In this document: piece by piece, positions 2,402 to 52,901 of the stretch
How the letters are laid out: each line of letters starts with the position of its first letter
Numbering within the stretch: position 1 is the first letter of the stretch
Origin: Tachypleus tridentatus
Lineage: Eukaryota
Length of the DNA: 64,000 nt
Reading direction: 5' to 3'
Assembly: GCF_004210375.1 (NCBI RefSeq)
Contig: NC_134831.1
Span: 99,017,522-99,081,521, forward strand
Translations under genes and position numbers: made by a program
Notes under the pieces: model-generated
The model's database searches: none
The model's input: only the letters and a program-made list of their open reading frames with translations
What the model was told of the DNA's origin: nothing

Positions 2402-2513
2402 AGGATGACATTTCGAAAGTCTTCCACTTTTCGTCTTCAGGACAGGCAGTTGCCATCCACTCTACAGTTTCATCATGAATACTCTGCCTACACAGTCTAT
2501 CAAAGAATAACCA
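2402..2513 (-). CDS. Candidate class I myosin tail (TH1) exon. It encodes WLFFDRLCRQSIHDETVEWMATACPEDEKWKTFEMSS.
   Basis: Weak similarity to the MYO1C TH1 start ...[24 protein letters not shown]. Acceptor tattattttaag|. The donor T|gtaaaa is tentative. The exon(s) between this and 11172 were not found. Confidence 0.35.
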
Positions 2514-5500
2514 CTTAAAATAATACATGCCTATGTATTATAACAGAGATTACTTTGCTTATAGAACACAAAGGTTAGTTGTTTTTGTATGTTGATGATA
2601 AAGCTACTGGGATTACATGCTACTGTTCCTAATTTTGAATTGTCAGTCATAAGGAAGAAAACTGGTTAGCATCTTCTGACATAAAATCTTGGGCTACTCT
2701 TTAAAATGAATAGTGGGATTAACTGTAACATTACAATGCTCCCACAGCTTAAAGGACTAGCATGTTCAATGATTGGTTTAGATCTTACAACTTTGCAGAT
2801 GGTAAGTTGAGTGTCCTAATCATCAGGCCCAATAGCTGTTAGCTTACTTTTAATGTACTACGTGATGTGGTTGTACATCAGCAATGAACACCTGCTTTGT
2901 CACTTAAGAAAAAAATGTCTGTAATGAGTTACAATGTATTATGTAACCAGATATGGGTGAATTATATTACAAATAGATAATATATTTGTATGTAATGCTG
3001 ACCTAATTTTTCATTCTTGGTTTCTTCTGTTCCAAGTTTTCATCCAATACACCAACTAGTTATTACTAGCAGCCCTTTATTTAACAATGTATGTACTGTT
3101 TAAACAGAAGGATTTGAAAAAAAACATTTTAACAATTGAAATTAGTTGACTAAAGAACCTACATATTAAGTTTAAACCATCTGCTTCAAAGCTGGAAAAA
3201 ATGAAGACTTTATATAAACAAAAAGTCCAGATGCAAAAAACCACATATTTTTACTTAATCAATATTGTACTTCAAAATACTGTTAACTGTTACGATTAAG
3301 GTGGAAAAAAAAGGATGAGTGTATTTAAATACTGATTATCGAACTCAAATAAGATACGCATATGGGTATTTCATAAAACATAGAACTATGTGTTTATGAT
3401 GTTTTTTTACTGAAAACAATATTCCAATGACTCAAACAATTTAACAAACATGAGCTTTATGAGCTGGTAAAATTATTATTTTTTCTGTATATTCAATATA
3501 ATCATTTTAATTTCAACTGAATTATCTTAAAGTTTCAAGTGTACTGATTTTAACTGACATATTTCTTTATATGACAGGAATAAAAACTTTAATAAGACAT
3601 ATTTCAAAAATAACATATTTTTCTAGTAATACAATTCACCCAAATCAAGAGATAAAAATGAAATGTTATTTCAATAAACTGTATTCCTATAAGGTAGTAA
3701 TACGTGGAACATAGATTTAGATATACTTTCAATAGCATCTGGAATATAAAATTACAAAACAGATTAGATTTTAAGATCATTTGCAGAATGTCTGAGAAAT
3801 GGGGTGGGGTTTGGTTTGTAAGATCAAAAACCAACACATGTCATGTAAAGCTCAATCAGCATGCTAATACCATGAGGGGAATGAGGACATGTGATGTTTT
3901 CAAGCCAAAATATTTTAATGCTTCATCAAAAGAATACAGATTATGTAGGAAATGTTAAATATCGTAAACAATTGTGCTACAACTATACATCACAAAAATA
4001 GGGGTCTCCTTGATCTACATTGGTATTTAAATGTTCATATTATAAATACTGTGTTCATTTATAAATATCAGTAGATTTATTTTTAAATGGGTTATTTAAA
4101 TTAATTACTCTACAAGAATCACATTACAGTTATATAAAACTGAAAGGAAGACATATAGTTGTTCTTACCAACGATTTTTCACCCTGAATATTAAAGAAGC
4201 TATCGAAGGCATTTGCTTTCAATGTATTTTGTTCACGAGCTAAAATAAAAAAAATTTCAAAATTACATAATATAATAACAACAATTAACATAACAATACT
4301 ATATGTTGAGGAGGTACACAAATAGGTTATACAGGATGGGATGGGTCACAAAAACACAACAAAAACTCATGCTAAGAAAGCTGAGATGGCATAAAAAAAC
4401 TTTAATCCATCTCTCTCTCTACAAAATCTTTGAATTAGTTATAATCCAAACCCTCTCTCTATAAAATCTTTGAATTGGTTGTAATCTAAGAAATCCTTGA
4501 AATCCATTTGTTTCAGCTTGATGAGTATGACGTATGATGCTGGATATGTATTGCAAAAGTCCTCACTATTCTGAAAATTTGTAGAAGATTCTTAAAAAAA
4601 AGAATCACAAAGTATTTGTTTTATGCTAGAACACTGTTGAAATTTTTACAACCTTGTGTTATTCCTATAAAAAGCATCTAGCTGAAAGATAGGAAGAATA
4701 TTATTGGTCAGCTACAGTCAGTGTGTTATAGGCATAAGAAGCTATAATTGTGATTAACACATATTAATTAGAAAATTACAAAATTGGACAAGGATCATTT
4801 ATAGATTTTGAACATTACAAACCATTCTGCTTCAGTGAATTAAATTTGGACTTTAGCATTTCTAAGGGAAAATTAAATATCTTCGTTGGTAAAAAGACAG
4901 CTTATAAGCTGTGTGAGGCCAGCCAAGCTAGTTCGCTTAAGCAAGGTACAACAACATCAATTGAGAATTAATTTTTCTCATCGTGTACTTGGATTATCAA
5001 TAGAATATTCAGTTCTAGACTAGATAAAAGACTTGTAAGAGTTTGTAAGACTTTTGTACATAAACCAATATTTGTGGTAACTATTTGAAATAACTAACTG
5101 TTATTATAAATTGTATTGTTGCTTGTATATTAAAATATATTTATGTTAGAAAGAAAACAGTGTGTATCAATCTTACTGGCAAGCATCATAAATTTGATAC
5201 ATATTAACATTCAATTAACTTCTGAATTAAAATTTCCAGTTATTTGAGTTCTTAATACCTTTTAATTTATAATGATAAATTATAACACATAACACTTCAA
5301 AATCCTTGATCTGACTGTAATTCAGTTCCTCTCTCTACAAAATCCTTGAACTGATTGCAATCCAATCATTTCTCTCTCTCCAAAACCCTTTATAATACAT
5401 CACATTAAATGAAACCCTGTAAAAGTTAAAAATGCACATTTTGACACCCATCTCTGAATACAGGGTTAAAGTATTAAAAAAAAAAACATCTTAGGAAGTT

Positions 5501-5874
5501 TATCCATGAAATGAACAAAATTAAATACAAAGCTAAGAAGGACTATAAGAAAACATAAAACTGATACATGAAACTTCTACATCTGTTTAATTTTATGCTA
5601 TAGTGATAGGTTTTTTAAATGGTTTTATTTGCACACCCCTTGTGTTATATCTCTCAGTATAAACAAAGTGAATCTAGATATATTCAGACATTTGGCTGTT
5701 TAACAAATACATACATAAAGCTTTCTTTCTGTATCAAAAACAGTAAATCTAGATTGCCTTCCACAAACTTTATTCACATCCAGGTCTTTGGCCATTGGCT
5801 ACAACTTTGGATCTGACATCAGTTTAAAAAAATCTTACTTGTGTTAACAAAACAAGATCTGCACTTGTACACAA

Positions 5875-6050: not shown

Positions 6051-8819
6051 AAAATGACAGTATTCTTATGGTGAACAAATACTGATTGAAAAAAAACCAA
6101 TTAAAGCATATATCTGTTTACATTCAAAACACAACAAATGTGTATAATGACTTTTCTCAAGCAACACTAAAATATTTCAGGGGTGAATCATTCTTTATAT
6201 ATTTTCTCTATACCATCATAATAAAAGGAAGTAAATGTATTTCACACAGGAATATTGTTTTCCAAACTTTTATAAACAACTATTGTATTTACAAACAATC
6301 TAATAAACCTACTTAGTCTGTTTCCAAGGAATGGTTGTGGAACAGTTCGAGGGTAGCTCTGTTTCTTGCTTTTAAAAAGATCTTGGGCCACAACTTTTTC
6401 GTTAAGCTGTAAATCCCCAAATACAATAATGTAATCTACTTACAAATAAATATATATATATATGAAAAATATGCATCATTCAATCCTTAAATAAATAGTT
6501 CTTGGAGAATATGTAAGGGCCAGGCTTTTAAAAGTGTGCAGTTTGATGTCACCAGTGTTTTGAGGCAAATTTCCCATAAGTACGTACCTTACACAAACAT
6601 ATAATCATATCTAAATAATATACAATGGACAGAGCTTTCCAAATATATATATGACTTTAAGTTTGTACTAAGTTTTTCCAGCAAACCAATGAAATAAATA
6701 ATGGTGGGGTGTTAAAATTAGCATGTCACCAACAGAAACATTTAGATTCAAAGTAATGACACAAACACAGTAACTGAAAGCATGACTAAAGCCTTTACTC
6801 TGATTAATTAGTGGAAATTTATGTTTTGAAAATTTGTTATTAGCTGATTCTCCCATTACTTTTTTTACATATTAAAGTATCCAAAATAACACGTCATCAT
6901 AATCGTATCTTCTTTATCACTGTGTATTTTTAAGGTAGTAATTACAAATTCTTAAGTAAGTAAAAAGAGAAGAACCTAAAATCAATCCAAGAAGTATTCA
7001 GTTTGATTTGAACTTACCACAAACATGACATATCAAGAGATATCTTGGGTATGTCCATTTGGAGCTTGTAATAAAATTAGTTCTTTTAAGCATGTCATCT
7101 CCTTTATGTATACATTCAGTGTAGATACTCAAATTATGTGATTTTGTTATATTGTTTACACAATAGTTAAGACAATCATTGTTATCAACAACTTAAAATG
7201 TAACATTTCATTCTTCAATAAACATCACTAAACATGAAATTGTGTAAACAACTCCTGTAACAACTCCTGTACATCTTCCCCTCTAGTTCAGTTTTGCTTC
7301 AGAGGAGAATATACAGAGTGCATAATGCTTTTCCTGCCATATTTAGTTTCCACCATGTGTAGATTATATTATATTTATTAGCGTAGGATGGATTTGAAAT
7401 GTTTTCATCTCAAATCATCTAACTTTCCTGCAAGAAAAGTTTTTAAAAGTGAGATTACATAACAGGTGTGTATCTCTTTAACTGTACAATTAATATTCGA
7501 ATGGTGGTAGTTTTAGGTTTAAATGACGAATAAATTATGAAGATAAATCTAATTAGGAGTCTGTTTATAAAACAAATGGTTAGAGACATGGTGAGTTATA
7601 TGTGAATGAGTTTACAGAATGGGTAAAGAAGATCACCATTCTACTTCAGCTCCTTGTATCAGTTTTGCACTTCTTACTATAATGCCACATTATAATAAAA
7701 GTTAACGTTCACGACCTGTGTATCTAATGTAACACAAAATGACTATTCTTATTACCCTGCCATAGTTGAATTTACTATAGAAATGTAAAGGATATCACAT
7801 TAATTTCTACACTTGTCTTTACTAATATACAGGGGTGGTCTGCATTTTGGTGATTGGTTTCGTACTTGTATTTGTTGAACAGATAGTTAACAAAGTTAGC
7901 AGCTGAAATATTATTACAGAAAAAAGACAACAGAAGGAAACACCTTGTTCTTTTCATTCTAGTTACAGTAGAGTCTGGTAAAGTGGAACGTGTGTGAAAC
8001 AGTAACCATTTTCATCAAGGTGGTAAAATATGATAAAATGTAGCCTGAGAGCTAGATGTTTAATACAAGGTTTTTCAGTAGTTATATTCATAAGAATTGT
8101 ATAAATCATAGTTAGAGGAGAAAATTTTCTTTAACATTTTCAGTTGAAAAAAAATGGACACTTGAGAAAGCCTGATCCATAAATTAAAGGACAGATGACC
8201 TTGTACAAGTTTCACTGCATTTTATTGTGCTAGTTTTACGAAATTTATTTGTACCTTTCAAGGTACAAGGTAGAAACAAAATAACTGTTCGTCTGTGTTT
8301 GTGTTACTCTCCTTTGTTATTTGAGTTTGAAATTAATTTTTTGTTAATAATTTTTATGAAAAGTTTATGCAGATATTTTTGAACCCAACTATAAGACATC
8401 ATTGTACTTGCATACCACAATTATATACTAACCTACACCATAATCTTTCATTGTAACAAATTCTATAAAGCAGGACAAGTTCAACCTTTGACGACATTTT
8501 GACAAACATTTCACAGACTAAAATGTATGAGGATATCATATTCCAAGACTATGCTTAAATAGAACTACACATAAGTCCATTCACACGATTGTAGTGTCAA
8601 ATGGTGTGGTGAGCCAAGCATGAAGCTTTTAAACATGTCACCATTGCTTCTAGTATGCTCATCTACAATGACATATTATGAATAGGCAAACGATTATTAC
8701 AGTTTATTAGTTACTTGTAACTTTTTAAAACTCTATTGAAACATCTTGTCATAATTATAGAGAAAAATATTATTTGAATATCTCTTGTCTGTTATAATTT
8801 AAATTTCAAACCTAACAAT

Positions 8820-9519: not shown

Positions 9520-9720
9520 GTTCAAAACAGAAAACCAATGAACACAATTATAGGTATCAGAAAACCAATGAACACAATTATAGGTATCATATTACACATC
9601 ACTATACCTGAACAGAAAACCAATGAACACAATTATAGGTATCATATTACACATCACTATACCTGAACAGAAAACCAATGAACACAATTATAGGTATCAT
9701 ATTACACATCACTATACCTG
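9520..9720. repeat. Short tandem repeat of a roughly 55-bp unit, 3 to 4 copies.
   Basis: The motif cagaaaaccaatgaacacaattataggtatcatattacacatcactatacctgaa is repeated. Confidence 0.8.
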
Positions 9721-11171
9721 AGCTTTTTGCTCAACAGAGATTGACTTGCAGTACTTTCTCATCAGCCACTTTCTGTGCATGTCTTGTAGAATGTTAGAGG
9801 CCTTAAAGAAAACATATTTAAAAGCCAAAAACATAATATTTACAAGTGTTAAATACTGTAATTAAATCTCTGTTATGTACAATAAAAATTAGAAATAAAA
9901 TAATTAATTAAGACATTCATTTTACATAACTTACTTCACGTATGTTATATTTTGAAGGTTCTTGAAGATAATGCAACACATTTTTGTACTGTATTACTGC
10001 TTAGTATTATAGAAGAGGAGAGAAAAGTTTAATAACTGTGACCTGTAAATAAGAAAGAACAGGAAAAAAATACTTTGCTTAAGGATAACCTAATAATACA
10101 CTAGTTTAACCTAAGAATACACTAGTTTAACCTAATAATACATTAGTTTAAAGTCATCAACTCTAAACTTATTCTTAAATAACATCTCACCTGATGGCAG
10201 CATCTTGGAGGGTGGGGCCATGATTTATCGAGGACAGTCTTCGGCAGGTTGCGAGCTAGACGACTTAAGTATTCATACTTCGCACACCGAATAAACTTTA
10301 ACATATCAAATCTTGATCAGCAATTACAAAATTTTTCACTGAGTTGAGAGAGTTGTTTATTATTCACAGGTCAGCATAATAAATAATGACTTGAAATAAA
10401 TGTAGATAACAATAAATGGATAACAACTCTGATTAGCTGTTATATAGACTAGAAATTAGATAGTTTTATTTAAAATTTCACAAAAACAACCCCAAAAGTC
10501 CAAGTTATTTTAAAGTAGAAAAATAAATACATTGAAACTTAGTAAATAATTTTGATAGATTAAGGAAATTTTTCACTTGCTCATGACTTGCCTTAACATT
10601 TATATAACTAAAGAAAGCTTATACTAATATATAACATAAAAAAACTGTTTTTATAGGATGTTAATCTGACTTAAAAATCAAGCAAGTCGTTAATTTAAAA
10701 ATGTCTTTGTTTGTTCCGATCATTTCTGAGTCAATCCTGTAGTCTAATTTGGTATTTGGCTGAAACCTATAATAACAGTAGTGAAAAGACTATATTTAAT
10801 ATTCTATGACAACTTTTGACATGACATTAAAACCTCTGATGGAATAAAATAGCAGTATACAAGTCAGTGATAGTGAGTTGAGTAATAGCTGAGAGCTTTA
10901 AAATGATCATGTTTACAAAACAACAGAACATGTGCACACAGGTCTACTTTAGTTTAAGAATTATATATGTCTAAAAATAATGATCTGAGAAATGTTTGAA
11001 AAGTGGAACATTCTTCATCACTATTAAGACAAGAGGACTCTCTCAACTTTCTGGGTTGTTTTTACGTTTATAACCACCTTGTAATGTAGTAAGATGTCAT
11101 ATTGCTTCCAAATGATGACACTGAAACAAAACATGGCAAAATAATGCCCAGTATCAAGTACTGCTACTTAC

Positions 11172-11226
11172 ATAAGCATTGGTTTCATTTTCTGCTTCAT
11201 TTCTTCTGATAAAACCTTCGATGAAA
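11172..11226 (-). CDS. Class I myosin neck/tail exon. It encodes (D)FIEGFIRRNEAENETNAY.
   Basis: Aligns with MYO1C [22 protein letters not shown]. Acceptor tttag|, donor TAT|gtaagt. Phase fits the previous exon. Confidence 0.7.
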
Positions 11227-12645: not shown

Positions 12646-12730
12646 TCTCGAATCATCTTGGCTGCCCATCGTCGTCTTGCAAGCATTTTCTTTGCTGCAT
12701 ACCGTCGCCAATAGCAGGATATAAGAATTG
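12646..12730 (-). CDS. Class I myosin IQ-motif exon. It encodes (A)ILISCYWRRYAAKKMLARRRWAAKMIR.
   Basis: IQ-like motif (IxxxxWRRYxxKK), comparable to MYO1C IQAAWRGFHWRQKF / [21 protein letters not shown]. Acceptor tatag|, donor GA|gtaaga. Its phase fits a direct splice from the exon at 21724 across a roughly 9 kb intron. Confidence 0.8.
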
Positions 12731-13694
12731 CTATAAACAAATTACATTAAAAACATTTAATATAAAGAACTGAATATAAATTAAGAATATTTAAAAGAGT
12801 CTTCTTTACATCTGCTGCTGCAAAACTAGCTTTTATTAATAGCTTTCTATTCCAATCACAAAGTAAAACTATAACTTTTAAAAGGTAATAAATCAATAAG
12901 AGTATTTATGGCAGTTTATTATGCACTTCAACTCTATTGTAAGTAAACCAACAATACAATGTGCAGTTCTTTGAATTTTGTGCAAAACTACTCAATGGCT
13001 ATCTACACTAACCATGTTTGATTTTGAATTGCTGGAAGACAGCTAGTAAACAACACCCTCTGATAATTCTTGGACTAATCTAATTGAAAAGTTAGACTTC
13101 ATCATCACTCCTATAAAACACACATGGCTCAAAAGTACAAAGAAAGATATTTGTTTTTAGTATCCAGGCACAAACCAAGGAAAATTGTATCTAACACAAT
13201 AACCTCTGAGCAACAGTCAGCCACAGATAAAATGGTATTTAAAATACATGTACAAAACCCTTAACATAAATAGTGACATCTATATATTTATTTCAGCCTG
13301 AATATTAAACTAATTGAGAATTTGTTTAAATAAATTTTTATATTTTATATGATACTAACTTAGACGGAAGTAGATATATTTTTAAAAGTACAGTATAGAA
13401 TGGTATAGTTAGGTTATAAATAGTGAAATTAATTTATAATTTCCAATATGTGACAACGATATTCATTTTGATAGACAATGCAGACATATGTACAATCTAT
13501 TTAAAGTCTATTTGACCTAAAACCCTTTAAATTTATTATTGTTATAGTTACACCATTATTCTTGTACTTTACCCTGGTTGGGGGAAACAAATGTTAAAAA
13601 GTAATTTTTCCCTACCTGATGTTTTTATTTGCAAAAACTTCTTTCTCTGACTGTAGGCTCTGAACTTTGCTTGGATCACTGTAACTACAAAACA

Positions 13695-16600
13695 CAATAT
13701 TTATTTTTATTTTAGACTGTCAGTATTACACAATGTGTAATTAATGTCTGCTTTAACTGATCATGACCAGAAATAAACATTATATACAAACTACTCATTG
13801 TGAAACAAGTAATATTTATTTTAGACTGTCAGTATTACACAATGTGTAATTAATGTCTGCTTTAACTGATCATGACCAGAACTAAACATTATATACAAAC
13901 TACTCATTGTGAAACAAGTAATATTTATTTTAGACTGTCAGTATTACACAATGTGTAATTAATGTCTGCTTTAACTGATCATGACCAGTACTAAACATTA
14001 TATACAAACTACTCATTGTGAAACAAGTAATATTTATTTTAGACTGTCAGTATTACACAATGTATAATTAATGTCTGCTTTAACTGATCATGACCAGAAC
14101 TAAACATTATATACAAACTACTCATTGTGAAACAAGTAATATTTATTTTAGACTGTCAGTATTACACAATGTGTAATTAATGTCTGCTTTAACTGATCAT
14201 GACCAGAACTAAACATTATATACAAACTACTCATTGTGAAACAAGTAATATTTATTTTAGACTGTCAGTATTACACAATGTGTAATTAATGTCTGCTTTA
14301 ACTGATCATGACCAGAACTAAACATTATATACAAACTACTCATTGTGAAACAAGTAATATTTATTTTAGACTGTCAGTATTACACAATGTATAATTAATG
14401 TCTGCTTTAACTGATCATGACCAGAACTAAACATTATATACAAACTACTCATTGTGAAACAAGTAATATTTATTTTAGACTGTCAGTATTACACAATGTG
14501 TAATTAATGTCTGCTTTAACTGATCATGACCAGAACTAAACATTACATACAAACTACTCATTGTGAAACAAGTAATATTTATTTTAGACTGTCAGTATTA
14601 CACAATGTGTAATTAATGTCTGCTTTAACTGATCATGACCAGAACTAAACATTATATACAAACTACTCATTGTGAAACAAGTAATATTTATTTTAGACTG
14701 TCAGTATTACACAATGTGTAATTAATGTCTGCTTTAACTGATCATGACCAGAACTAAACATTATATACAAACTACTCATTGTGAAACAAGTAATATTTAT
14801 TTTAGACTGTCAGTATTACACAATGTGTAATTAATGTCTGCTTTAACTGATCATGACCAGAACTAAACATTATATACAAACTACTCATTGTGAAACAAGT
14901 AATATTTATTTTAGACTGTCAGTATTACACAATGTGTAATTAATGTCTGCTTTAACTGATCATGACCAGAACTAAACATTATATACAAACTACTCATTGT
15001 GAAACAAGTAATATTTATTTTAGACTGTCAGTATTACACAATGTGTAATTAATGTCTGCTTTAACTGATCATGACCAGAACTAAACATTATATACAAACT
15101 ACTCATTGTGAAACAAGTAATATTTATTTTAGACTGTCAGTATTACACAATGTATAATTAATGTCTGCTTTAACTGATCATGACCAGAACTAAACATTAT
15201 ATACAAACTACTCATTGTGAAACAAGTAATATTTATTTTAGACTGTCAGTATTACACAATGTATAATTAATGTCTGCTTTAACTGATCATGACCAGAACT
15301 AAACATTATATACAAACTACTCATTGTGAAACAAGTAATATTTATTTTAGACTGTCAGTATTACACAATGTATAATTAATGTCTGCTTTAACTGATCATG
15401 ACCAGAACTAAACATTATATACAAACTACTCATTGTGAAACAAGTAATATTTATTTTAGACTGTCAGTATTACACAATGTATAATTAATGTCTGCTTTAA
15501 CTGATCATGACCAGAACTAAACATTATATACAAACTACTCATTGTGAAACAAGTAATATTTATTTTAGACTGTCAGTATTACACAATGTATAATTAATGT
15601 CTGCTTTAACTGATCATGACCAGAACTAAACATTATATACAAACTACTCATTGTGAAACAAGTAATATTTATTTTAGACTGTCAGTATTACACAATGTAT
15701 AATTAATGTCTGCTTTAACTGATCATGACCAGAACTAAACATTATATACAAACTACTCATTGTGAAACAAGTAATATTTATTTTAGACTGTCAGTATTAC
15801 ACAATGTATAATTAATGTCTGCTTTAACTGATCATGACCAGAACTAAACATTATATACAAACTACTCATTGTGAAACAAGTAATATTTATTTTAGACTGT
15901 CAGTATTACACAATGTATAATTAATGTCTGCTTTAACTGATCATGACCAGAACTAAACATTATATACAAACTACTCATTGTGAAACAAGTAATATTTATT
16001 TTAGACTGTCAGTATTACACAATGTATAATTAATGTCTGCTTTAACTGATCATGACCAGAACTAAACATTATATACAAACTACTCATTGTGAAACAAGTA
16101 ATATTTATTTTAGACTGTCAGTATTACACAATGTATAATTAATGTCTGCTTTAACTGATCATGACCAGAACTAAACATTATATACAAACTACTCATTGTG
16201 AAACAAGTAATATTTATTTTAGACTGTCAATATTACACAATGTATAATTAATGTCTGCTTTAACTGATCATGACCAGAACTAAACATTATATACAAACTA
16301 CTCATTGTGAAACAAGTAATATTTATTTTAGACTGTCAATATTACACAATGTATAATTAATGTCTGCTTTAACTGATCATGACCAGAACTAAACATTATA
16401 TACAAACTACTCATTGTGAAACAAGTAATATTTATTTTAGACTGTCAATATTACACAATGTATAATTAATGTCTGCTTTAACTGATCATGACCAGAACTA
16501 AACATTATATACAAACTACTCATTGTGAAACAAGTAATATTTATTTTAGACTGTCAGTATTACACAATGTATAATTAATGTCTGCTTTAACTGATCATGA

Positions 16601-19835: not shown

Positions 19836-20115
19836 TTTGTTTGTTTATTTTTTGAATTTTGAACAAAGCTACTCGAGGGCTATCTGTGCTTGCCGTCCCT
19901 AATTTAGCAGTGTAAGACTAGAGGGAAGGTAGCTAGTCATCACCACCCACTGCCAACTCTTGGGCTACTCTTTTACCAATGAATAGTGGGATTGACCGTC
20001 TCCATATAATGCCCCCATGGCTGAAAGGGCGAGCATGTTTGGAGCAACGGGGATGCGAACTCATGACCCTCAGATTACAAGTCGCACACCTTAACACGCT
20101 TGGCCATGCCGGGCC
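19836..20115 (-). mobile_element. tRNA-derived SINE (family 1), an older CpG-decayed copy.
   Basis: Reverse complement of the tRNA-like head (ggcccggcatggccaagcgtgttaaggtgtgcgacttgtaatctgagggtcatgagttcgcatcc) and body. The A/T-rich tail, seen as its complement gtttgtttattttttgaattttgaacaaagc, is at the 5' end on the plus strand. Confidence 0.85.
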
Positions 20116-21480: not shown

Positions 21481-21723
21481 CAACAATACAGACTTCTAAA
21501 TGTTAGACATTAAATACGAGAAACTGTATTAGAATTCAACAAGTTATTTTTGTTTGGTATTAACCTAGCTCAACTGGTTGATACTTAAAAACAAACTATA
21601 AATCTAAGTTGAGACTTTGAAAATTAACTCATAAAAAAATTGGACTTTGAAATGTAATTTTTGTTACACGATGACATAGACTAATATACTGAAAAAGGAA
21701 TAAAAAATACTGGACAGAATTAC

Positions 21724-21800
21724 CTAAATCATGCTTTTTGTGCTGGAAGCAATCTTCAGTCTCAAAAAGAGTTTGTGGTAGACGAATGAAAATCTTTGTT
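21724..21800 (-). CDS. Class I myosin exon (end of the motor/converter region). It encodes (K)TKIFIRLPQTLFETEDCFQHKKHDL.
   Basis: Aligns with MYO1C [26 protein letters not shown]. Acceptor tatttttcag|, donor G|gtaatt. Confidence 0.88.
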
Positions 21801-22141: not shown

Positions 22142-22373
22142 TTTCCCATTCTGTGAGCATCTGGTTTGTAGCCCAGATGGTTTACCAGAATTTGTACTCC
22201 TTGTTTAGCACTACCTTGATAACTGGGCCAAGTTTTTGGACACAGGCACTTGTATCTTTTTAGGAAAACTTCATAAGGTCGTCGATAAGCAAACCCGGCT
22301 CTTCGAACTCTCAAGTTTTCCATAAGGCCAAGATATTTAACTTGATGTGCTACAATCATGTCATCAAAGACAG
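22142..22373 (-). CDS. Class I myosin exon. It encodes [76 protein letters not shown](K).
   Basis: Aligns with MYO1[50 protein letters not shown]...LVRHLGYKPEEYKMG. Acceptor atttcag|, donor AA|gtaagt. 232 nt. Confidence 0.92.
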
Positions 22374-22717: not shown

Positions 22718-23035
22718 GTGTCCACAAGTTTAAAAACACAGCTTTTAGTGGTATTAGTGCCCCCAGTGGCACAGTGCTAGAAACTTGATGTTGATACCTA
22801 TGGGGGCAGAGCACAGAGAGCCTATTGTGTAGTTTTGTGCTTCATTACAAACAAAGTGGCATGAGCCCCCATACTTACTATTGAATCATTAAATACTATT
22901 GTAATTTTATTCTTTTTAGAGAGACATTTACAGGCCAGCTTACCTGGCTGTTTTCTGTCGTTGGGTTTGATACATCGGACATACCATGGTTCTTTTGACA
23001 TTAATATTGTCATCAACTGAGACAAGCTTCTCTTA
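22718..23035. repeat. Copy A of a roughly 320-bp segmental duplication. It contains a SINE2 insertion plus the functional myosin exon at 22944-23049.
   Basis: About 90 percent identical to 24937-25250 over a SINE2 element and the adjacent exon sequence. Confidence 0.9.
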
Positions 23036-23049
23036 AACTGGGTGGCTGT
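22944..23049 (-). CDS. Class I myosin exon. It encodes [35 protein letters not shown](A).
   Basis: Conserved myosin motif VRCIKPN. Aligns with MYO1[37 protein letters not shown]. Donor CAG|gtaagc. The acceptor is most likely tcgaag| at 23049; an alternative lies 4 nt downstream. Confidence 0.85.
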
Positions 23050-24320: not shown

Positions 24321-24401
24321 TGTGTCTGGTCTTTTCTTGTTTGAAAGCTCAGATTCTGGAAAAGAAGTTCTTGTGATGAGATTTGATGTCTTTGTCATAG
24401 T
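24321..24401 (-). CDS. Class I myosin exon. It encodes TMTKTSNLITRTSFPESELSNKKRPDT.
   Basis: Aligns with MYO1C [27 protein letters not shown]. Acceptor gttttcag|, donor ACA|gtaagt. 27 codons. Confidence 0.85.
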
Positions 24402-25556: not shown

Positions 25557-25603
25557 CTTTTTCAAATCTCGATACAGAAGATCATTATTCTTCTCCAAAA
25601 ACC
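25557..25603 (-). CDS. Class I myosin exon. It encodes (G)FLEKNNDLLYRDLKK.
   Basis: Aligns with MYO1C GFLDKNNDLLFRNLKE. Acceptor ttgtttccag|, donor AAG|gtaaat. Phase agrees with the flanking exons. Confidence 0.88.
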
Positions 25604-26588: not shown

Positions 26589-26637
26589 CGTCCACTCTGT
26601 ATGTGACATCTCCGGCATAATGTCTCAGTCTGAATTC
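26589..26637 (-). CDS. Class I myosin exon. It encodes EFRLRHYAGDVTYRVD(G).
   Basis: Aligns with MYO1C EFRLLHYAGEVTYSVTG. Acceptor gtgtttcag|, donor G|gtaatt. Confidence 0.88.
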
Positions 26638-28767: not shown

Positions 28768-28905
28768 ATTTCTATTTAATGTTTTCTTAGTTCTTTTGTC
28801 TGCTGTCTTATGGGAGAGAAAGTGTTGGTGTGACCCAACAAGTGTTTCTAGTTTATCAAGGAATGTCGAGTCTGTTGCATCACCTGGTCTAAAACATTCT
28901 TCGTC
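28768..28905 (-). CDS. Class I myosin exon. It encodes [46 protein letters not shown].
   Basis: Aligns with MYO1C [46 protein letters not shown]. Acceptor ctgtag|, donor AAT|gtaaga. 46 codons. Confidence 0.9.
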
Positions 28906-29686: not shown

Positions 29687-29767
29687 CAGAATGGAGATGA
29701 TACCTTTAAACTGCTCATCTATAAGGTCACATATGATTTTATTGTTGAAGTATTCTATCGGCTCCCA
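29687..29767 (-). CDS. Class I myosin exon. It encodes [27 protein letters not shown].
   Basis: Aligns with MYO1[28 protein letters not shown]. Acceptor ctgtttcag|, donor CTG|gtgagt. 27 codons. Confidence 0.92.
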
Positions 29768-34768: not shown

Positions 34769-34874
34769 CTCAATGCCCTCTTTACTATATTCTTCCTGTT
34801 CAGACTTTAGTGTTAGTTCAATGAAAAGTTGTTGAAGTTTCTCATTGCAATAGTTGATACAAAACTGCTCAAAG
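34769..34874 (-). CDS. Class I myosin exon. It encodes (S)[35 protein letters not shown].
   Basis: Matches the conserved [18 protein letters not shown] myosin motif. Acceptor tatttcag|, donor GAG|gtacta. 1 + 35 codons. Confidence 0.92.
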
Positions 34875-36179: not shown

Positions 36180-36250
36180 CTGTTATTTTCAAAGATTTCA
36201 AACCCGTATATATCTAGCAGACCCATTAGGGTTTTCCTTCCAGTGTAATC
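36180..36250 (-). CDS. Class I myosin exon. It encodes DYTGRKTLMGLLDIYGFEIFENN(S).
   Basis: Conserved LDIYGFE motif. Acceptor cctgcag|, donor AG|gtgaga. It ends with 2 extra bases that are completed by the next exon. Confidence 0.9.
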
Positions 36251-36931: not shown

Positions 36932-37051
36932 CCTATTTTCTAGAGAGACATTTAGCTTCTGGACCAACCACTTAAACTGTCGCTCATACACAGCTTTTGC
37001 AATGGCATCTCTTGCACATATGGCCTGGTCACGATTCAGTGGACTTATAAC
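36932..37051 (-). CDS. Class I myosin exon. It encodes VISPLNRDQAICARDAIAKAVYERQFKWLVQKLNVSLENR.
   Basis: Aligns with MYO1C [37 protein letters not shown] (conserved ARDALAK motif). Acceptor ttttaaag|, donor AGG|gtgagt. 40 codons. Confidence 0.9.
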
Positions 37052-37869: not shown

Positions 37870-39180
37870 ACAAAACAACAAGTCATTAAAAATAAATACA
37901 TGTAGTTTAAAGTTATTATATTACCTGTGAGACTGAACAATGTACACTGAATATTGATAATAAATACATGTAGTTTAAAGTTATTATATTACCTGTGAGA
38001 CTGAACAATGTACACTGAATATTGATAATAAATACATGTAGTTTAAAGTTATTATATTACCTGTGAGACTGAACAATGTACACTGAATATTGATAATAAA
38101 TACATGTAGTTTAAAGTTATTATATTACCTGTGAGACTGAACAATGTACACTGAATATTGATAATAAATACATGTAGTTTAAAGTTATTATATTACCTGT
38201 GAGACTGAACAATGTACACTGAATATTGATAATAAATACATGTAGTTTAAAGTTATTATATTACCCTGTGAGACTGAACAATGTACACTGAATATTGATA
38301 ATAAATACATGTAGTTTAAAGTTATTATATTACCTGTGAGACTGAACAATGTACACTGAATATTGATAATAAATACATGTAGTTTAAAGTTATTATATTA
38401 CCTGTGAGACTGAACAATGTACACTGAATATTGATAATAAATACATGTAGTTTAAAGTTATTATATTACCTGTGAGACTGAACAATGTACACTGAATATT
38501 GATAATAAATACATGTAGTTTAAAGTTATTATATTACCTGTGAGACTGAACAATGTACACTGAATATTGATAATAAATACATGTAGTTTAAAGTTATTAT
38601 ATTACCTGTGAGACTGAACAATGTACACTGAATATTGATAATAAATACATGTAGTTTAAAGTTATTATATTACCTGTGAGACTGAACAATGTACACTGAA
38701 TATTGATAATAAATACATGTAGTTTAAAGTTATTATATTACCTGTGAGACTGAACAATGTACACTGAATATTGATAATAAATACATGTAGTTTAAAGTTA
38801 TTATATTACCTGTGAGACTGAACAATGTACACTGAATATTGATAATAAATACATGTAGTTTAAAGTTATTATATTACCTGTGAGACTGAACAATGTACAC
38901 TGAATATTGATAATAAATACATGTAGTTTAAAGTTATTATATTACCTGTGAGACTGAACAATGTACACTGAATATTGATAATAAATACATGTAGTTTAAA
39001 GTTATTATATTACCTGTGAGACTGAACAATGTACACTGAATATTGATAATAAATACATGTAGTTTAAAGTTATTATATTACCTGTGAGACTGAACAATGT
39101 ACACTGAATATTGATAATAAATACATGTAGTTTAAAGTTATTATATTACCTGTGAGACTGAACAATGTACACTGAATATT
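37870..39180. repeat. Tandem repeat of a 68-bp unit, about 19 copies.
   Basis: Unit ttacctgtgagactgaacaatgtacactgaatattgataataaatacatgtagtttaaagttattata, nearly identical between copies. Confidence 0.95.
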
Positions 39181-39419
39181 GCAAAATTAAAGGTAGTTAT
39201 TCAAACTGCACAATAAAACCTTTTAACTTTAGACTTTTGTACAACCTGCATACATTCCAATGGACACTTCATCTGTATTTGTCAACTGGCAAGTAAAAAT
39301 TAATTTTACATCAAGAATATAAGCATTATTAGTTGGTAAGTAATGTTATACATATAATGTACCATTAATCAAATGTGTACAGAAATAAGTATGAAAAGTA
39401 TTTCACTAGATATACTCAC

Positions 39420-39491
39420 AGAATCACCACAAACTTCAATAGTACGATGGGTAAGGGCATCATTCAACATATCTTCTGGACATCCTAAGAG
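39420..39491 (-). CDS. Class I myosin exon. It encodes LLGCPEDMLNDALTHRTIEVCGDS.
   Basis: Aligns with MYO1C [24 protein letters not shown]. Acceptor tttcttag|, donor TCT|gtgagt. 24 codons. Confidence 0.85.
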
Positions 39492-39639
39492 CTAAGAAAA
39501 CAAGAAGAAACTGTTCTATATATTTACTACCAGTTATTTGCCCATCCCTAGAACGTGCACAGCTTAATGTAGAAACTTATTAAATGAAATTCCTTGCAGT
39601 TGCTACAATACATTTATCAGTTACAAAAATGCAACAGTA

Positions 39640-39941
39640 CTATAGCACTGTAACTAACCTTGCATCCAGAATAAACTGACTTCTCCAATGTAATAAGAGC
39701 CTACCCATTATCTTCTGTGGACCCATCATTAACAGAATAACACTGTAACTAGCCTTGCATTCAAAATAAACTAACTTCTCCAGTGTAATAACAGCCTGCC
39801 AATTATCTTCTGTGAATCCAACATTGATACTATAACATTGTAACTAACCTTGCATACAGATTAAACTGACTTCTCCTGTGTAGTAACAACCTAACAATTA
39901 TCTTTTGGACCATACAGTAACACTATAACATTGTAACTAAC
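39640..39941 (-). repeat. Tandem amplification (about 3 extra copies of roughly 95 bp) of the 3' half of the myosin exon at 39942-40052 together with its splice donor.
   Basis: Each unit ends with caaggttagtta (the exon end plus the gttagt donor) on the minus strand. The units diverge from the true exon: their reading frame is interrupted and they do not read as LHLGN coding sequence. Confidence 0.85.
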
Positions 39942-40052
39942 CTTGCATACACAACAAACTGACTTCTCCTGTGCAATAACAGCATGACCATCATCCTCTG
40001 TGAAGCCAACATTACCTAGATGAAGAACTGATGCCACAACTGCAAACAAAGC
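39942..40052 (-). CDS. Class I myosin exon. It encodes [37 protein letters not shown].
   Basis: Contains the conserved myosin LHLGN motif. Aligns with MYO1C [21 protein letters not shown]... Acceptor tttcttctag|, donor AAG|gttagt. Confidence 0.88.
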
Positions 40053-41626: not shown

Positions 41627-41725
41627 ATTTACTTCCTCTTCTGTGAAATCTATAACTGACAAAGCACTTTTAACAATCTGGAACTGTGCAGTGTCATCAA
41701 GTCTATTCACTCTGGTACTGTTACC
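41627..41725 (-). CDS. Class I myosin exon. It encodes GNSTRVNRLDDTAQFQIVKSALSVIDFTEEEVN.
   Basis: Aligns with MYO1C ...[26 protein letters not shown]. Acceptor ttctag|, donor AAT|gtaagc. 33 codons. Confidence 0.85.
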
Positions 41726-42439: not shown

Positions 42440-43010
42440 ATTTGGTCCAATAGTAGTAGTTTACAAATAGCTTTGTTAACACGGAGATAATAGCAGTAGT
42501 TTACAAATAGCTTTGTTAACACGGAGATAATAGCAGTAGTTTACAAATAGCTTTGTTAACACGGAGATAATAGCAGTAGTTTACAAATAGCTTTGTTAAC
42601 ACGGAGATAATAGCAGTAGTTTACAAATAGCTTTGTTAACACGGAGATAATAGCAGTAGTTTACAAATAGCTTTGTTAACACGGAGATAATAGCAGTAGT
42701 TTACAAATAGCTTTGTTAACACGGAGATAATAGCAGTAGTTTACAAATAGCTTTGTTAACACGGAGATAGTAGTAGTAGTTTACAAATAGCTTTGTTAAC
42801 ACGAAGATAATAGTAGTAGTTTACAAATAGCTTTGTTAACACGAAGATAATAGTAGTAGTTTACAAATAGCTTTGTTAACACGAAGATAATAGTAGTAGT
42901 TTACAAATAGCTTTGTTAACACGGAGATAATAGTAGTAGTTTACAAATAGCTTTGTTAACACGGAGATAATAGTAGTAGTTTACAAATAGCTTTGTTAAC
43001 ATGGAGGTAA
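42440..43010. repeat. Tandem repeat of a 40-bp unit, about 14 copies.
   Basis: The unit tagtttacaaatagctttgttaacacggagataatagcag is repeated. Variants acgaag/acggag and tagtag/tagcag cluster in blocks. Confidence 0.95.
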
Positions 43011-44646
43011 TAGCAGTAGTTTATTTACCTTTTTAACCATTGGAAACAGAAGTCATCTGAAATTATGAGCTTTTCACTAGAAAACTGATAAGGCCAATAT
43101 CTTATTTAATTCCTAATATATAACAAGGGTATACAGGTATGTGTTGTGTATAACAAGGGTATACAGGTATGTGTTGTATATAACAAGGGTATACAGGTAT
43201 GTGTTGTGCTTTTTTCCTACTATCAGACCAAAAACAAGAACCTTAAACTGTTATTCTACTAAGAAAATCCAGTATGTAAGTGATGTTACACAAGTTATAT
43301 CCTGTCAATAAAGAGAGATAAATATTTTCATTTAATAATCAGATGATGGTAAGTAGGACCTGATACAAATGTAAGATTAAATTTGAATCCAATGTTAAAC
43401 CATAAAGGGAAGAAAACCTGACTCAATTGCTTCATTCTAAATGATATCAAAGAGAATTTTATGTCTTTATGACTAAAAAAAATAATTTTGTTTATTTTTT
43501 ATAGTTGAGCTTAAAGCTACACTATTGTGCTATGTCCAACCCAAGTATCAAAATTCAATTTTTATAATTTTAAGTCTGTAGACTTACAGCTATACCACTG
43601 GGAGGTGAAAAAATATGGAGCTACAGCTTCAATCACATTATTTAACATATTGAAGAAAACACAGCAACTCAAGTTCTCTTTTATCTTATTACAAATTAGC
43701 TGGAGTGCCCATCCCCTGGATAAAAGTTATGTAATTCTTGATTAATGACAGGTTATCTTAGGATATGAAAAGTTGCTTCCGTTACGCATACTTGTGAAAA
43801 TTGCCCATAGAAACTGCAAAACACAGAACTGAAAATTTGTATCTATCTCTCCATGGACTCAATGAGCCTCCTTATTATATATGCTGAAAGTCCATCCACA
43901 GGAGGTGAGAAACTATCAGAAAATGATAAAAACAATGTAAGACTTAACATTAGTATGCACCCTCACACAGGCCTAATGAACTGCCATAAACACTTTGGTA
44001 AAGATCCATCCACACTCTGCAAATCAGTGATATGGACATACAACAGAATACTATAAAATTTGTGTAGATACGTATGATTTACCCTAAAATAAATTCTTTT
44101 CTGTATAGCTGTCGCTACCACTTAGGTTTATTACACCTTCTTATTGGCTATATGATACAATGCAGAATTTACAGTTTACTTAATATGTAACTGTTTCTTG
44201 CTTAAACATGATTTCTTAATAAGTGATACTTTAAAAACAAGAAACCCAAAGACTGTGAAGTACTCTATACTACAGAGTGTTTGGAAAGTCACTGTGCAGT
44301 TTTGAAAGTAGCAATAACAGCATTCATTCAGTCTATTTCAAGCCAGCAACTGATAGCGGTGTTTAGAAACAAAATAAGAAGGATCCAGGTCTGTACTGAT
44401 GCCAACGGGGCCACTTTCAACATTGTTTATAAATGTCATTCATATTTACCTCCTGTATTCTATATTGAAACATGTCTGTTAATAAATATACAAGTGCACA
44501 CTGACTTTCCGTATACCCTGTATTTTCATAACTAGTACTATATACATACATATGTACATGCTGTACATTTATTAACATTATCTTAATAATGTAATAACAA
44601 AAATTAACAAGTATATTAATTAATAAATTGAGAACATATTTGGTAC

Positions 44647-44826
44647 TTGGTTCAGGTAATAGTAAAACTCTGGATCACGCCGAAGAAATAACGTCTGTAA
44701 AGTGCTATCGTCGGCCCCCATGACTAGCTGGTAGAATATATGGAAGTTCCTTTCTCCAGTGTTCTGATGAGTCACCCGAGACTTCTCCAAAAGGTAGTTA
44801 AGTACATGGCCACCAAGAGGTGCACC
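44647..44826 (-). CDS. Class I myosin exon. It encodes [60 protein letters not shown].
   Basis: Collinear with MYO1[36 protein letters not shown]... Acceptor tattattag|, donor CAA|gtacca. Length 180 nt, 60 codons. Confidence 0.9.
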
Positions 44827-48188: not shown

Positions 48189-48269
48189 CAAAAAGTTGAA
48201 TTCAATATCCATGTACTTGCCAAACCTACTAGAATTGTCATTTCGATTGGTTTTGGCATTCCCAAAAGC
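48189..48269 (-). CDS. Class I myosin exon (switch I region). It encodes [27 protein letters not shown].
   Basis: Near-exact match to the conserved myosin motif [18 protein letters not shown]. Acceptor ttttgtag|, donor TTG|gtatgt. Phase 0 at both ends. Confidence 0.92.
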
Positions 48270-49899: not shown

Positions 49900-51180
49900 G
49901 CCTAATACAATATTTTTCTTCATGTTATATACAGAAAGTATACAGCATACTTTATTACAATCTAATACAGAAAGTATACAGCATGCTTTATTACAATCTA
50001 ATACAGAAAGTATACAGAATGTATACAGCATTCTTTATTACAATCTAATACAGAAAGTATACAGCATGCCTTATTACAATCTAATACAGAATATATATAC
50101 AGCATGCTTTATTACAATCTGATACAGAAAGTATACAGCATGCTTTATTACAATCTAATACAGAAAGTATACAGCATGCTTTATTACAATCTGATACAGA
50201 AAGTATAGAGCATACTTTATTACAATCTAATACAGAAAGTATACAGCATGCTTTATTACAATCTAATACAGAAAGTATAGAGCATGCCTTATTACAATCT
50301 AATACAGAATATATATACAGCATGCTTTATTACAATATAATACAGAAAGTATAGAGCATGCTTTATTACAATCTAATACAGAATATATATATAGCATGCT
50401 TTATTACAATCTAATACAGAAAGTATACAGTATGCTTTATTACAATCTAATACAGAAAGTACAGAGCATGCTTTATTACAATCTAATACAGAAAGTATAC
50501 AGCATGCTTTATTACAATCTAATACAGAAAGTATAGAGCATGCTTTATTACAATCTAATACAGAAAGTATAGAGCATGCCTTATTACAATCTAATACAGA
50601 ATATATATACAGCATGCTTTATTACAATATAATACAGAAAGTATAGAGCATGCTTTATTACAATCTAATACAGAATATATATATAGCATGCTTTATTACA
50701 ATCTAATACAGAAAGTATACAGTATGCTTTATTACAATCTAATACAGAAAGTACAGAGCATGCTTTATTACAATCTAATACAGAAAGTATACAGCATGCT
50801 TTATTACAATCTAATACAGAAAGTATAGAGCATGCTTTATTACAATCTAATACAGAAAGTATAGAGCATGATTTATTACAATCTAATACAGAAAGTATAG
50901 AGCATGCCTTATTACAATCTAATACAGAATATATATACAGCATGCTTTATTACAATATAATACAGAAAGTATAGAGCATGCTTTATTACAATCTAATACA
51001 GAATATATATATAGCATGCTTTATTACAATCTAATACAGAAAGTATACAGTATGCTTTATTACAATCTGATACAGAAAGTATAGAGCATGCCTTATTACA
51101 ATCTAATACAGAATATATATACAGCATGCTTTATTACAATCTAATGCAGAAAGTATACAGTATGCTTTATTATAATCTAA
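49900..51180. repeat. Satellite of a 36-39-bp unit, about 34 copies, with a roughly 292-bp higher-order periodicity.
   Basis: Unit ctttattacaatctaatacagaaagtatacagcatg. The ORFs at 50081-50323, 50373-50615 and 50665-50943 are near-identical and offset by 292 bp, which indicates a higher-order repeat. Confidence 0.9.
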
Positions 51181-52701
51181 TTTCTCTTAAATTTCAGCGT
51201 TATATGAAACATAACTGTTTCATTTTGGGAAGTTTTAAACAAAATGTAATACTTGTTAAAACTGACAATGTTAAGAAATCATGCATATGCAAAAAATCAT
51301 TTACAAAAAAACAATCCAATACCCTATCACCCAAGCACTTTTAAAAATGCACCTCTCATAATTAGTTTGCTTATGTAATTTTTTATAAATGTTCACTGTA
51401 ATTTAACTAACCATTTGCATTTAAAATGCAACATTCATAAACTTGAGTTACTTACTAACATTGAGTATAATGTGATCATTATTTTTATCTTGACCAGCAA
51501 GTGTACATTTTTTAAGTGGTTAGTTTTCTAAGTTGGTTCTGAGACACTGATTAACCTCTAAGGATATATCAGAAAAATATGTCCTGTCAAAACTGCTGTG
51601 CCTGATTAAAGGACTTCATTTTTTTTTCACACATGTGAAAAAACTTCCTTTATTGTTCACACACGCATTTTCCCTATCCTTATAGTTTGTTTTTTTAATT
51701 AATATTATTATAACGTTTTAACATATATCCACTTTTAATTATTCTTATAGATTCTTTTATAGGTTAGTTACAATGGAGCATAAGTGAGTAATTTTCATGA
51801 GGTTCGTGTTTGAATTAGAACATCAAATTTAAATTTTATGTTATATAGAGCTTGAGCACATTATATTAAATAAAATTATTCTGGAGCCTCAAAATGATGT
51901 AGCAGTCTATGTTATCATGTTCTGTCTATGCATCCTGACATTAGCTATGCATCATAGTTTCCATTGCAAACGATTTTGTCATAAGGCTATAATATCCAAA
52001 GCACACTACTCCTACTTGAATTGTATCCATAATCCATCAGGTGTACAGTAAGTCAATGGAAAATACATCAAGTAACTTGACCAACATGTCTTTGTACTGA
52101 AAATAACAAATGCTTCTTTCATTTTATAGCTACTTGAGTCATGTAATAGTTGAACAGATATGTTATGAAAGCAACTCTTATTATGGTTTTTCCAGACAGC
52201 AGTCCTTCTTGATTATGTTACATACTGTTGCCTGAGGCATTTAATCAACTTTTGCTGCTGACCTTTGTGACTATAAATTATTACCTTTTATAAGATGCCA
52301 CCTTTTGCTTATCAAATCAGGGATATGACTTGATAGAAGTCTCTTTATTTTTGGTCCTGGTTCCCCAAGTTGGTCATTTTACAAGGGGCATCCTCATTAA
52401 AAAACCTGATCTGGACATATTTTTATGTAAATGTATGAATATCTTGTGTTGGAAAAGGCTGTTACACATCAGCTGTTATTGCCATGTGAATTGCTGAGTT
52501 ACATATTCAAAATTATTTTAATATAATATACTCACTTCTCTGTCCATAAGCATCAGCCACAACTAACTTTTAAAAATTTTTAAGAGTTTTATACTTTGGG
52601 TTAAAAAGGTCAGTCTAAATCTTGTTTATGTTCTACACAACAATAAGCCATAGCTTTTAGAACTTGTATAAGCTATACATTAAAATTCAAAAGATTTTCT
52701 A

Positions 52702-52901
52702 CCTCTAGTACAGGATTAGAATTCAAGAGTTTTTCTTTCACATGTTCCACCTGCTTAACATGATAACTTGCAGCAGCAAGGTAATGTAGGATTTTTTTTG
52801 AAGCTTCAGTCTTTCCTGCCCCACTTTCCCCAGATATCAGGATACACTGATCTCGACATTCCTCATGCAGCAGCCTATAGGCTGAGTCAGCAATGGCAAA
52901 T
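52702..52901 (-). CDS. Class I myosin exon (P-loop / ATP-binding). It encodes [43 protein letters not shown]...LLNSNPVLE.
   Basis: The minus-strand translation contains the canonical myosin P-loop GESGAGKTE and the NPVLE motif. It aligns with MYO1C residues around HLFAVAD...SNPVLE. The acceptor is tttatttatag| and the donor is GAG|gtagaa. Phase agrees with the next exon. Confidence 0.9.

Follow-up and report, generated by a model that had tools for sequence, protein, structure and literature searches.

A minus-strand Myo1c-type class I myosin gene extends across a 64,000-nucleotide window of the Tachypleus tridentatus genome

We found that the window, the whole 64,000-nucleotide stretch of Tachypleus tridentatus DNA analysed here, lies wholly inside one minus-strand class I myosin gene of the short-tailed Myo1c/Myo1h/Myo61F type. 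It carries 25 exons of this gene, accounting for residues 81/82-933 of a protein of 1029 aa, and we put the probability of this reading at about 0.96. The encoded portion starts with the P-loop exon and takes in the greater part of the motor domain, a neck of three IQ motifs and the N-terminal half of the TH1 tail. Both the gene and its family, the Myo1c-type class I myosins, are already known: a RefSeq model exists and the family is well studied. The value of the work is mainly one of quality control. A reading of the raw sequence recognised a real multi-exon animal gene and placed its motifs correctly; such a reading also misses some small exons and can introduce a spurious one.

How secure is the identity of the gene? 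The original prediction had proposed a multi-exon, MYO1C-like class I myosin gene on the minus strand, and the agreement is far above chance. The spliced translation is identical at 852 of 852 aa to residues 82-933 of XP_076369373 (P0001), the RefSeq protein "unconventional myosin-Ic-like isoform X3" [Tachypleus tridentatus], and tblastn blocks against this protein show 100% identity across the same residues. The top match in the homologue search, with E = 0, was likewise a T. tridentatus protein named 'unconventional myosin-Ic-like', and all members of the 90% cluster (9/9) come from T. tridentatus. Given this identity, it is very unlikely that the DNA belongs to another horseshoe crab, Tachypleus gigas or Carcinoscorpius rotundicauda, and such an origin would leave the identity of the gene as it is. 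RefSeq holds nine isoforms, X1-X9 (XP_076369369-XP_076369387), all from one 196-Mb contig. Throughout the compared part the window gene is like this RefSeq gene, with zero differences over residues 82-933. In window numbering, isoform X6 skips precisely exon 4 and isoform X4 precisely exon 22.

The exons were placed by combining tblastn blocks, junction solving, spliced translation and the match to Limulus, and residues are numbered as in XP_076369373. The 25 coding exons in the window run from 52901 to 1066 on the minus strand:

Exon 1 (in window), 52703..52901, minus strand: aa 81-147; P-loop GESGAGKT (52831-52808, aa 105-112); a phase-2 intron precedes it, and its AG/GT flanks are kept in Limulus
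Exon 2, 48189..48269, minus strand: aa 148-174; AFGNAKT and switch I NSSRFGK (together 48269-48216; NSSRFGK is aa 159-165)
Exon 3, 44647..44826, minus strand: aa 175-234
Exon 4, 41627..41725, minus strand: aa 235-267; skipped in RefSeq isoform X6
Exon 5, 39942..40052, minus strand: aa 268-304; LHLGN (40025-40011)
Exon 6, 39420..39491, minus strand: aa 305-328; TEDS-site residue D327
Exon 7, 36932..37051, minus strand: aa 329-368; DAIAK
Exon 8, 36180..36250, minus strand: aa 369-392; LDIYGFE (36217-36197), containing switch II DIYGFE (aa 381-386)
Exon 9, 34769..34874, minus strand: aa 392-427; CINY/NEKLQQ (34861-34829)
Exon 10, 29687..29767, minus strand: aa 428-454
Exon 11, 28768..28905, minus strand: aa 455-500
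Exon 12, 26589..26637, minus strand: aa 501-517
Exon 13, 25557..25603, minus strand: aa 517-532; the shortest, 47 nt
Exon 14, 24321..24401, minus strand: aa 533-559
Exon 15, 22944..23049, minus strand: aa 560-595; VRCIKPN (22980-22960)
Exon 16, 22142..22373, minus strand: aa 595-672; converter region; the longest, 232 nt
Exon 17, 21724..21800, minus strand: aa 672-698; end of the motor domain
Exon 18, 13616..13684, minus strand: aa 698-721; IQ1
Exon 19, 12646..12730, minus strand: aa 721-749; IQ2 and the start of IQ3
Exon 20, 11172..11226, minus strand: aa 749-767; the remainder of IQ3
Exon 21, 10191..10295, minus strand: aa 768-802; tail
Exon 22, 9718..9801, minus strand: aa 803-830; tail; skipped in RefSeq isoform X4
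Exon 23, 6313..6406, minus strand: aa 831-862; the Pfam TH1 match starts at aa 851
Exon 24, 4169..4239, minus strand: aa 862-885; TH1
Exon 25, 1066..1207, minus strand: aa 886-933; TH1, then donor GTAATT; below the span 2402-52901

At 24 of 24 internal junctions a single canonical GT..AG solution reproduces the reference protein, with consistent phases. We regard the junctions as probable, given their identity to a RefSeq model protein (an XP_ accession) and their conservation in Limulus. The exon size range reported earlier, 47 to 232 nt, was exactly reproduced, and the quoted motifs all lie on the minus strand, where they follow one another collinearly. The exon count fared less well: 19 had been claimed, against 25 in the window and 24 within 2402-52901. 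Moreover, most tail exons had been described as unlocated, and exons 20-25 are present at 11226-1066; the accompanying statement that the exons upstream of the P-loop exon were not found stands, as they are absent from the window. When ten diverse homologues and isoforms were compared with the window, no extra or alternative exons emerged beyond degenerate copies of exon 5 at 39825-39643.

The two bounds given for the gene also differed in quality. The upper bound, 52901, falls exactly where the P-loop exon begins, directly behind the acceptor 'tatag'. No exon of the reference model ends at the lower bound, 2402. On the minus strand the sequence there is ...TCATCCTG followed by GTAAAA, which is donor-like, and the bound probably reflects a spurious exon that stops at that GTAAAA. 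As a candidate exon this site was rejected: the open frame at 2537-2304 has no Pfam match, its blastx similarity to myosin I proteins is at chance level (E 0.55), and the 164-nt stretch around position 2402, 2502-2339, lacks a Limulus counterpart.

The gene extends past both ends of the window, leaving residues 1-81 and 934-1029 outside. Positions 63379-53907 align with the Limulus intron preceding the P-loop exon, and positions 1-1217 align with Limulus exon 25 and the intron that follows it. Residues 1-81 would be encoded by the gene's first two coding exons, past position 64000, and residues 934-1029 by about three final exons past position 1. Neither terminal segment has a collinear match in the window by tblastn (word size 2, E up to 10) or by exact 5-mers in six frames, and the same holds for the alternative N-termini of isoforms X1, X2 and X5 (tblastn; exact 5-mers, six frames). 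The 5-mer search for the absent termini returned scattered chance 5-mers only.

To which subclass does the protein belong? Class I myosins are single-headed and lack a coiled-coil dimerisation region. Pfam finds only three kinds of domain in the short, 1029-aa XP_076369373. Myosin_head (PF00063; 818.3 bits, E 6.3e-246) covers residues 14-678, of which the window encodes 82-678. A single IQ match (20.4 bits against a cutoff of 20.3) falls at residues 696-714, after the converter, and two more degenerate IQ-like motifs were read by eye at 723-736 and 746-757. The IQ motif of the original prediction is thereby borne out, the motifs being distributed over exons 18-20. Myosin_TH1 (PF06017; 88.7 bits) covers residues 851-1024, of which the window encodes only 851-933, in exons 23-25. 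In class I myosins the TEDS rule calls for T, E, D or S 16 residues ahead of the DALAK motif, and D327, 16 residues upstream of DAIAK (343-347), fits this rule.

A different class I subclass, Myo1b/Myo1d-like or long-tailed Myo1e/f-like, could in principle have been mislabelled as Myo1c-like, and many insect homologues are indeed listed under the old name 'myosin-IB'. In insects that name denotes Myo61F, the Myo1c-type gene, and so counts against the mislabelling. Among the top 120 matches, the named ones are Myo1c, Myo61F, insect 'myosin-IB' and one dipteran protein labelled MYO1H family, and the named vertebrate matches are Myo1c. In the search of solved structures, the Myo1c entries reached 1072 and 1027 bits, compared with 811 bits for the Myo1b structure and 690 bits for that of Dictyostelium myosin IE. 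A long-tailed myosin also sits badly with a length of about 1029 aa: Pfam found no SH3 or TH2 domain after TH1 in the full XP_076369373, whose C-terminal part lies outside the window, and the TH1 match itself reaches residue 1024 of 1029. We consider membership in another subclass exceedingly unlikely; judged by structure scores and match names, the protein appears nearer Myo1c than the other class I subclasses.

Comparison with a second horseshoe crab genus bears on whether this is a working gene. The Limulus polyphemus 'unconventional myosin-Ic-like' protein (P0002; locus L001, KI894836.1) is the orthologue, with 89% protein identity. All 25 exons (25/25) have counterparts in the same order and of the same lengths, with AG/GT flanks and 82-100% nucleotide identity, whereas the introns are collinear with those of Tachypleus at about 70-85% identity. 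The Limulus model is C-terminally truncated because one tail exon lies on the opposite strand in the draft assembly. Each genus also has a second paralogue (P0003 in Tachypleus, P0004 in Limulus) that matches the window protein in length (1029 aa) and domain architecture; the Tachypleus copy is only 78% identical to the window protein and lies on another contig (275 Mb rather than 196 Mb). Identity between Tachypleus and Limulus is 89% and 88% within each paralogue lineage and 78-81% between lineages, and the duplication is older than the Limulus/Tachypleus split. Whole-genome duplications occurred in horseshoe crabs (PMC7815833), and the retention of the pair in both genera is consistent with them.

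That same history raises the rival view that the window holds a decaying myosin-I pseudogene, such as a redundant leftover of whole-genome duplication (PMC7815833). A paralogue at 78% identity exists, and duplicated exon fragments do occur in the introns. However, 25 of 25 exons are open, every splice site is canonical, and nine isoforms are modelled in RefSeq. Moreover, the exons are more conserved than the introns and both paralogue lineages have been kept in both genera, which points to purifying selection. Decay is extremely improbable on this evidence, and we retain the reading of a working gene. The survival of both Myo1c-type paralogues in Tachypleus and Limulus is itself one by-product of the analysis.

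The introns are long because they contain lineage-specific tandem satellites and transposon remnants. Satellites make up ~18% of the window. Satellites and transposons had been noted in the introns from the outset, correctly, together with a maximum intron length of about 9 kb, which was too high: no complete intron in the window is longer than intron 17, at 8039 nt, and the partly included intron upstream of exon 1 exceeds 11.1 kb. Several Limulus introns are much shorter, at 348 rather than 8039 nt for intron 17, 480 rather than 2368 for intron 6, and 1235 rather than 3311 for intron 22. Intron 17 contains a 4.9-kb satellite that arose by in-place amplification of the intron's own sequence. 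This clean case of in-place satellite amplification enlarging introns since the horseshoe crab genera diverged is a further, mildly useful by-product.

Pieces of exons have been copied as well. The 3' end of exon 5 has three extra tandem copies at 39924-39638 with an intact donor site; the copies at 39825-39643 are degenerate, and one contains a stop codon. The 3' third of exon 15 has been copied into intron 13, at about 25215-24940, again with an intact donor site. These exon copies and the intron 17 satellite might offer decoy splice sites or adjust splicing or the speed of transcription in a lineage-specific way, but this is very unlikely; they are better read as neutral debris, and nothing suggests that the intronic satellites or transposon remnants act as parts of the gene. 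We tentatively label the stretch 32980-30600 retrotransposon-like. Its single ORF fragments lack a Pfam match, and its hand-stitched translation gives a sub-threshold Exo_endo_phos_2 match (E 0.0015, 18.8 bits against a cutoff of 27.4). Across the whole window, Rfam at gathering thresholds and a tRNA scan detected no snoRNA, miRNA or tRNA-derived elements.

How does the horseshoe crab protein compare with better-known relatives? Vertebrate Myo1c (PDB 9cfu, 4byf), its sister Myo1h and Drosophila Myo61F have the same motor, three IQ motifs and short TH1 tail. Family membership predicts a single-headed, actin-activated ATPase whose IQ neck would bind calmodulin-type light chains and whose TH1 tail would bind membrane phosphoinositides; because Myo1c-type necks and tails have these binding properties, the protein may link membranes to actin. 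It shares with the Myo1c-type myosins its P-loop, both switch motifs (I and II) and an acidic residue at the TEDS site. Vertebrate Myo1c is its highest-scoring solved structure (1072 bits), and lizard Myo1c is 56% identical to it over the full length. The horseshoe crab protein, from a chelicerate, is co-orthologous to both Myo1c and Myo1h rather than to Myo1c specifically, and its function is a predicted one. Finally, horseshoe crabs have at least two Myo1c-type paralogues, of which the window gene is one.

The identification of the gene as a class I, MYO1C-like myosin is correct, and the gene is an ordinary one that has been annotated before. Six-frame translation of the window recovered every motif quoted in the original prediction, on the minus strand and in collinear order:

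Myosin motifs found by six-frame translation
52831-52808, minus, GESGAGKT
48269-48216, minus, AFGNAKT and NSSRFGK
40025-40011, minus, LHLGN
36217-36197, minus, LDIYGFE
34861-34829, minus, CINY/NEKLQQ
22980-22960, minus, VRCIKPN

The window is AT-rich (GC 0.26-0.38), and stop-free stretches on its minus strand show further pieces that had gone unlisted, such as a TH1-like stretch at 1207-1064. When the obvious exon pieces were joined into a rough seed for a protein-collection search, the top match was XP_076369373 (unconventional myosin-Ic-like isoform X3 of T. tridentatus, 1029 aa; E = 0, 95% identity to the seed), and the next-best matches were a protein from Limulus polyphemus (87%) and a second paralogue from Tachypleus (78%). 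The other matches, from chelicerates, insects, molluscs, cnidarians, and vertebrates, were labelled Myo1c, Myo61F or "myosin-IB", and one carried a MYO1H family label.

By tblastn, isoform X3 matched the window in 25 collinear blocks covering residues 82-933, with 100% identity except for block-end overhangs. We tried every donor/acceptor offset that reproduces the protein at each of the 24 junctions, and exactly one canonical GT..AG solution was found at all 24. Spliced and translated, the 25 exons give exactly residues 82-933 (852/852 aa), and intron phases agree across the whole model, as had been claimed for a smaller exon set.

Coding exons within the window
52901-52703, minus, exon 1
48269-48189, minus, exon 2
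44826-44647, minus, exon 3
41725-41627, minus, exon 4
40052-39942, minus, exon 5
39491-39420, minus, exon 6
37051-36932, minus, exon 7
36250-36180, minus, exon 8
34874-34769, minus, exon 9
29767-29687, minus, exon 10
28905-28768, minus, exon 11
26637-26589, minus, exon 12
25603-25557, minus, exon 13
24401-24321, minus, exon 14
23049-22944, minus, exon 15
22373-22142, minus, exon 16
21800-21724, minus, exon 17
13684-13616, minus, exon 18
12730-12646, minus, exon 19
11226-11172, minus, exon 20
10295-10191, minus, exon 21
9801-9718, minus, exon 22
6406-6313, minus, exon 23
4239-4169, minus, exon 24
1207-1066, minus, exon 25

Base 52901, the first of exon 1, finishes the Val81 codon directly after the acceptor "tatag", and the donor GTAATT directly follows exon 25. 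The shortest exon is exon 13 (47 nt) and the longest is exon 16 (232 nt), which matches the range originally given; the coding sequence amounts to 2555 nt, or 4% of the window.

Several details of the original prediction need revision. It counted 19 exons between 2402 and 52901, a span that holds 24 of the 25, and it reported most tail exons as not located, whereas tail exons 20-25 are all present. Exactly 19 exons lie from the P-loop exon through the second IQ exon and may be the ones counted, although the lower bound of 2402 conflicts with that reading. On the minus strand, 2402 ends an open frame, TCATCCTG, followed by a donor-like GTAAAA at 2401, and these two features were probably the source of the bound. 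The frame has no Pfam match, shows only chance-level similarity to the retrieved myosin I proteins (E 0.55), and lies in a 164-nt stretch (2339-2502) that is missing from Limulus intron 24, which is otherwise collinear; an exon ending at 2402 is most likely false. Introns within the window reach 8.0 kb rather than about 9 kb (intron 17, 8039 nt), and the upstream intron, cut by the window end, exceeds 11.1 kb.

Support for the junctions comes from the nine isoforms that RefSeq models for the gene (XP_076369369 to XP_076369387, which share a single 196-Mb contig), from exact exon skipping, and from conservation in Limulus. Relative to X3, isoform X6 lacks exactly exon 4 and X4 exactly exon 22, each bordered by phase-0 introns. 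All 25 exons have counterparts at the orthologous Limulus locus (KI894836.1, here L001), unchanged in order and length and with 82-100% nucleotide identity; every projected boundary has AG directly before and GT directly after it. The introns also align collinearly, at about 70-85% identity.

Residues 1-81 and 934-1029 of X3, and the N-termini that other isoforms use instead, have no collinear match in the window. In Limulus, distances of 27.9 kb and 11.4 kb separate the exons for residues 1-45 and 43-81, respectively, from the P-loop exon downstream of them. Since 63379-53907 aligns with L001 23076-30840, within the last upstream Limulus intron, and the low-coordinate end (1217-2) aligns with Limulus exon 25 and the intron after it, the gene extends past both ends of the window, in line with the claim that it spans the whole stretch.

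Pfam assigns X3 a Myosin_head domain (818 bits, residues 14-678), a Myosin_TH1 domain (88.7 bits, residues 851-1024), and an IQ motif (20.4 bits, cutoff 20.3), with no SH3 match. All three nucleotide-binding motifs (P-loop, switch I, and switch II) are intact, exons 18-20 encode three IQ-like motifs, and D327, 16 residues upstream of DAIAK, agrees with the TEDS rule. Among solved structures, Myo1c scored best (9cfu and 4byf, 1072 and 1027 bits), ahead of Myo1b (811) and Dictyostelium myosin IE (690). These domains, motifs, and scores identify the protein as a Myo1c/Myo1h/Myo61F-type class I myosin with a short tail. By family, it is predicted to be a single-headed actin-based motor, with an IQ neck that would bind light chains of the calmodulin type and a TH1 tail that would bind membrane phosphoinositides.

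The introns had been described as filled with satellites and transposons; the satellites are borne out, the transposons less firmly. Tandem Repeats Finder detected the following arrays and several smaller ones, which by added coordinates sum to about 11.3 kb (18% of the window):

Main tandem arrays
13706-18648, 109 bp x 45
20682-21476, 72 bp x 11
37891-39181, 68 bp x 19
42449-43023, 40 bp x 14
49929-51181, 36 bp x 34
1-566, 63 bp x 9

Intron 17 (13685-21723) measures 8039 nt here versus 348 nt in Limulus. The 109-bp satellite aligns at about 72% with Limulus intron 17 itself (L001 56623-56855), and the array therefore appears to be an in situ expansion of ancestral intron sequence that postdates the separation of the two genera.

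Exon ends are also duplicated. A 95-bp array (39638-40014; four copies, 80% matches) comprises the 3' part of exon 5 with its donor (AAGGTTAGT) and, in intron 5, three further degenerate copies, of which two keep the donor GT and the third has GC; one contains a stop. At least one additional copy seems to be present in Limulus as well (L001 42846-42938). The same kind of duplication is seen at L001 19413-19968, where at least four further copies of the 3' end of the residues 43-81 exon (VEQYRNVNL.ELPP) lie immediately downstream of it, on both strands. Intron 13 (~24940-25215) carries a copy of the last third of exon 15 that continues through the donor GGTAAG into some 230 nt of intron 15 (source 22740-22985); the shared core is near-identical, and the copy is in none of the RefSeq isoforms seen.

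The intron upstream of exon 1 contains a mariner/Mos1-like transposase remnant (58494-59251, minus). Its first ORF, at 59251-58763, matches the Mos1 (mariner) transposase HTH domain (HTH_48, E 2.6e-9). The adjacent ORF (58856-58494, minus) resembles a mariner C-terminus by eye and has no Pfam match. In intron 9, a frame-shifted ORF run (~30600-32980, minus) combines a CCHC-like knuckle, an SDHFP endonuclease-like motif, and an RLxIGHxxLTH-like C-terminal motif, which together suggest a degraded non-LTR retrotransposon; its sole database match is sub-threshold (Exo_endo_phos_2, E 0.0015). Rfam and tRNA scans of the whole window were empty, including for two short interspersed repeat families (about 150-330 bp) that are multi-copy in the Limulus locus too:

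Short interspersed repeats
56708-56433, 56050-55773, 20122-19840, first group
63379-63065, 60921-60766, 60134-60004, 34140-34021, second group
L001 46414-46692, 57596-57869, 23076-23406, Limulus examples

The annotated Limulus orthologue is shortened to 963 aa because of an assembly or annotation flaw involving L001 68663-68737 (minus) and 71022-71090: the draft assembly places the exon for residues 933-957 on the strand opposite to the gene, and the annotated C-terminus uses a degenerate look-alike in its place. X3 and this orthologue are 89% identical, the Tachypleus and Limulus copies of the second paralogue are 88% identical, and identity between the two pairs is 78-81%. The two paralogue lineages are therefore older than the Limulus/Tachypleus split, which fits the whole-genome duplications reported in horseshoe crabs (PMC7815833, PMC4066314, PMC11836539).
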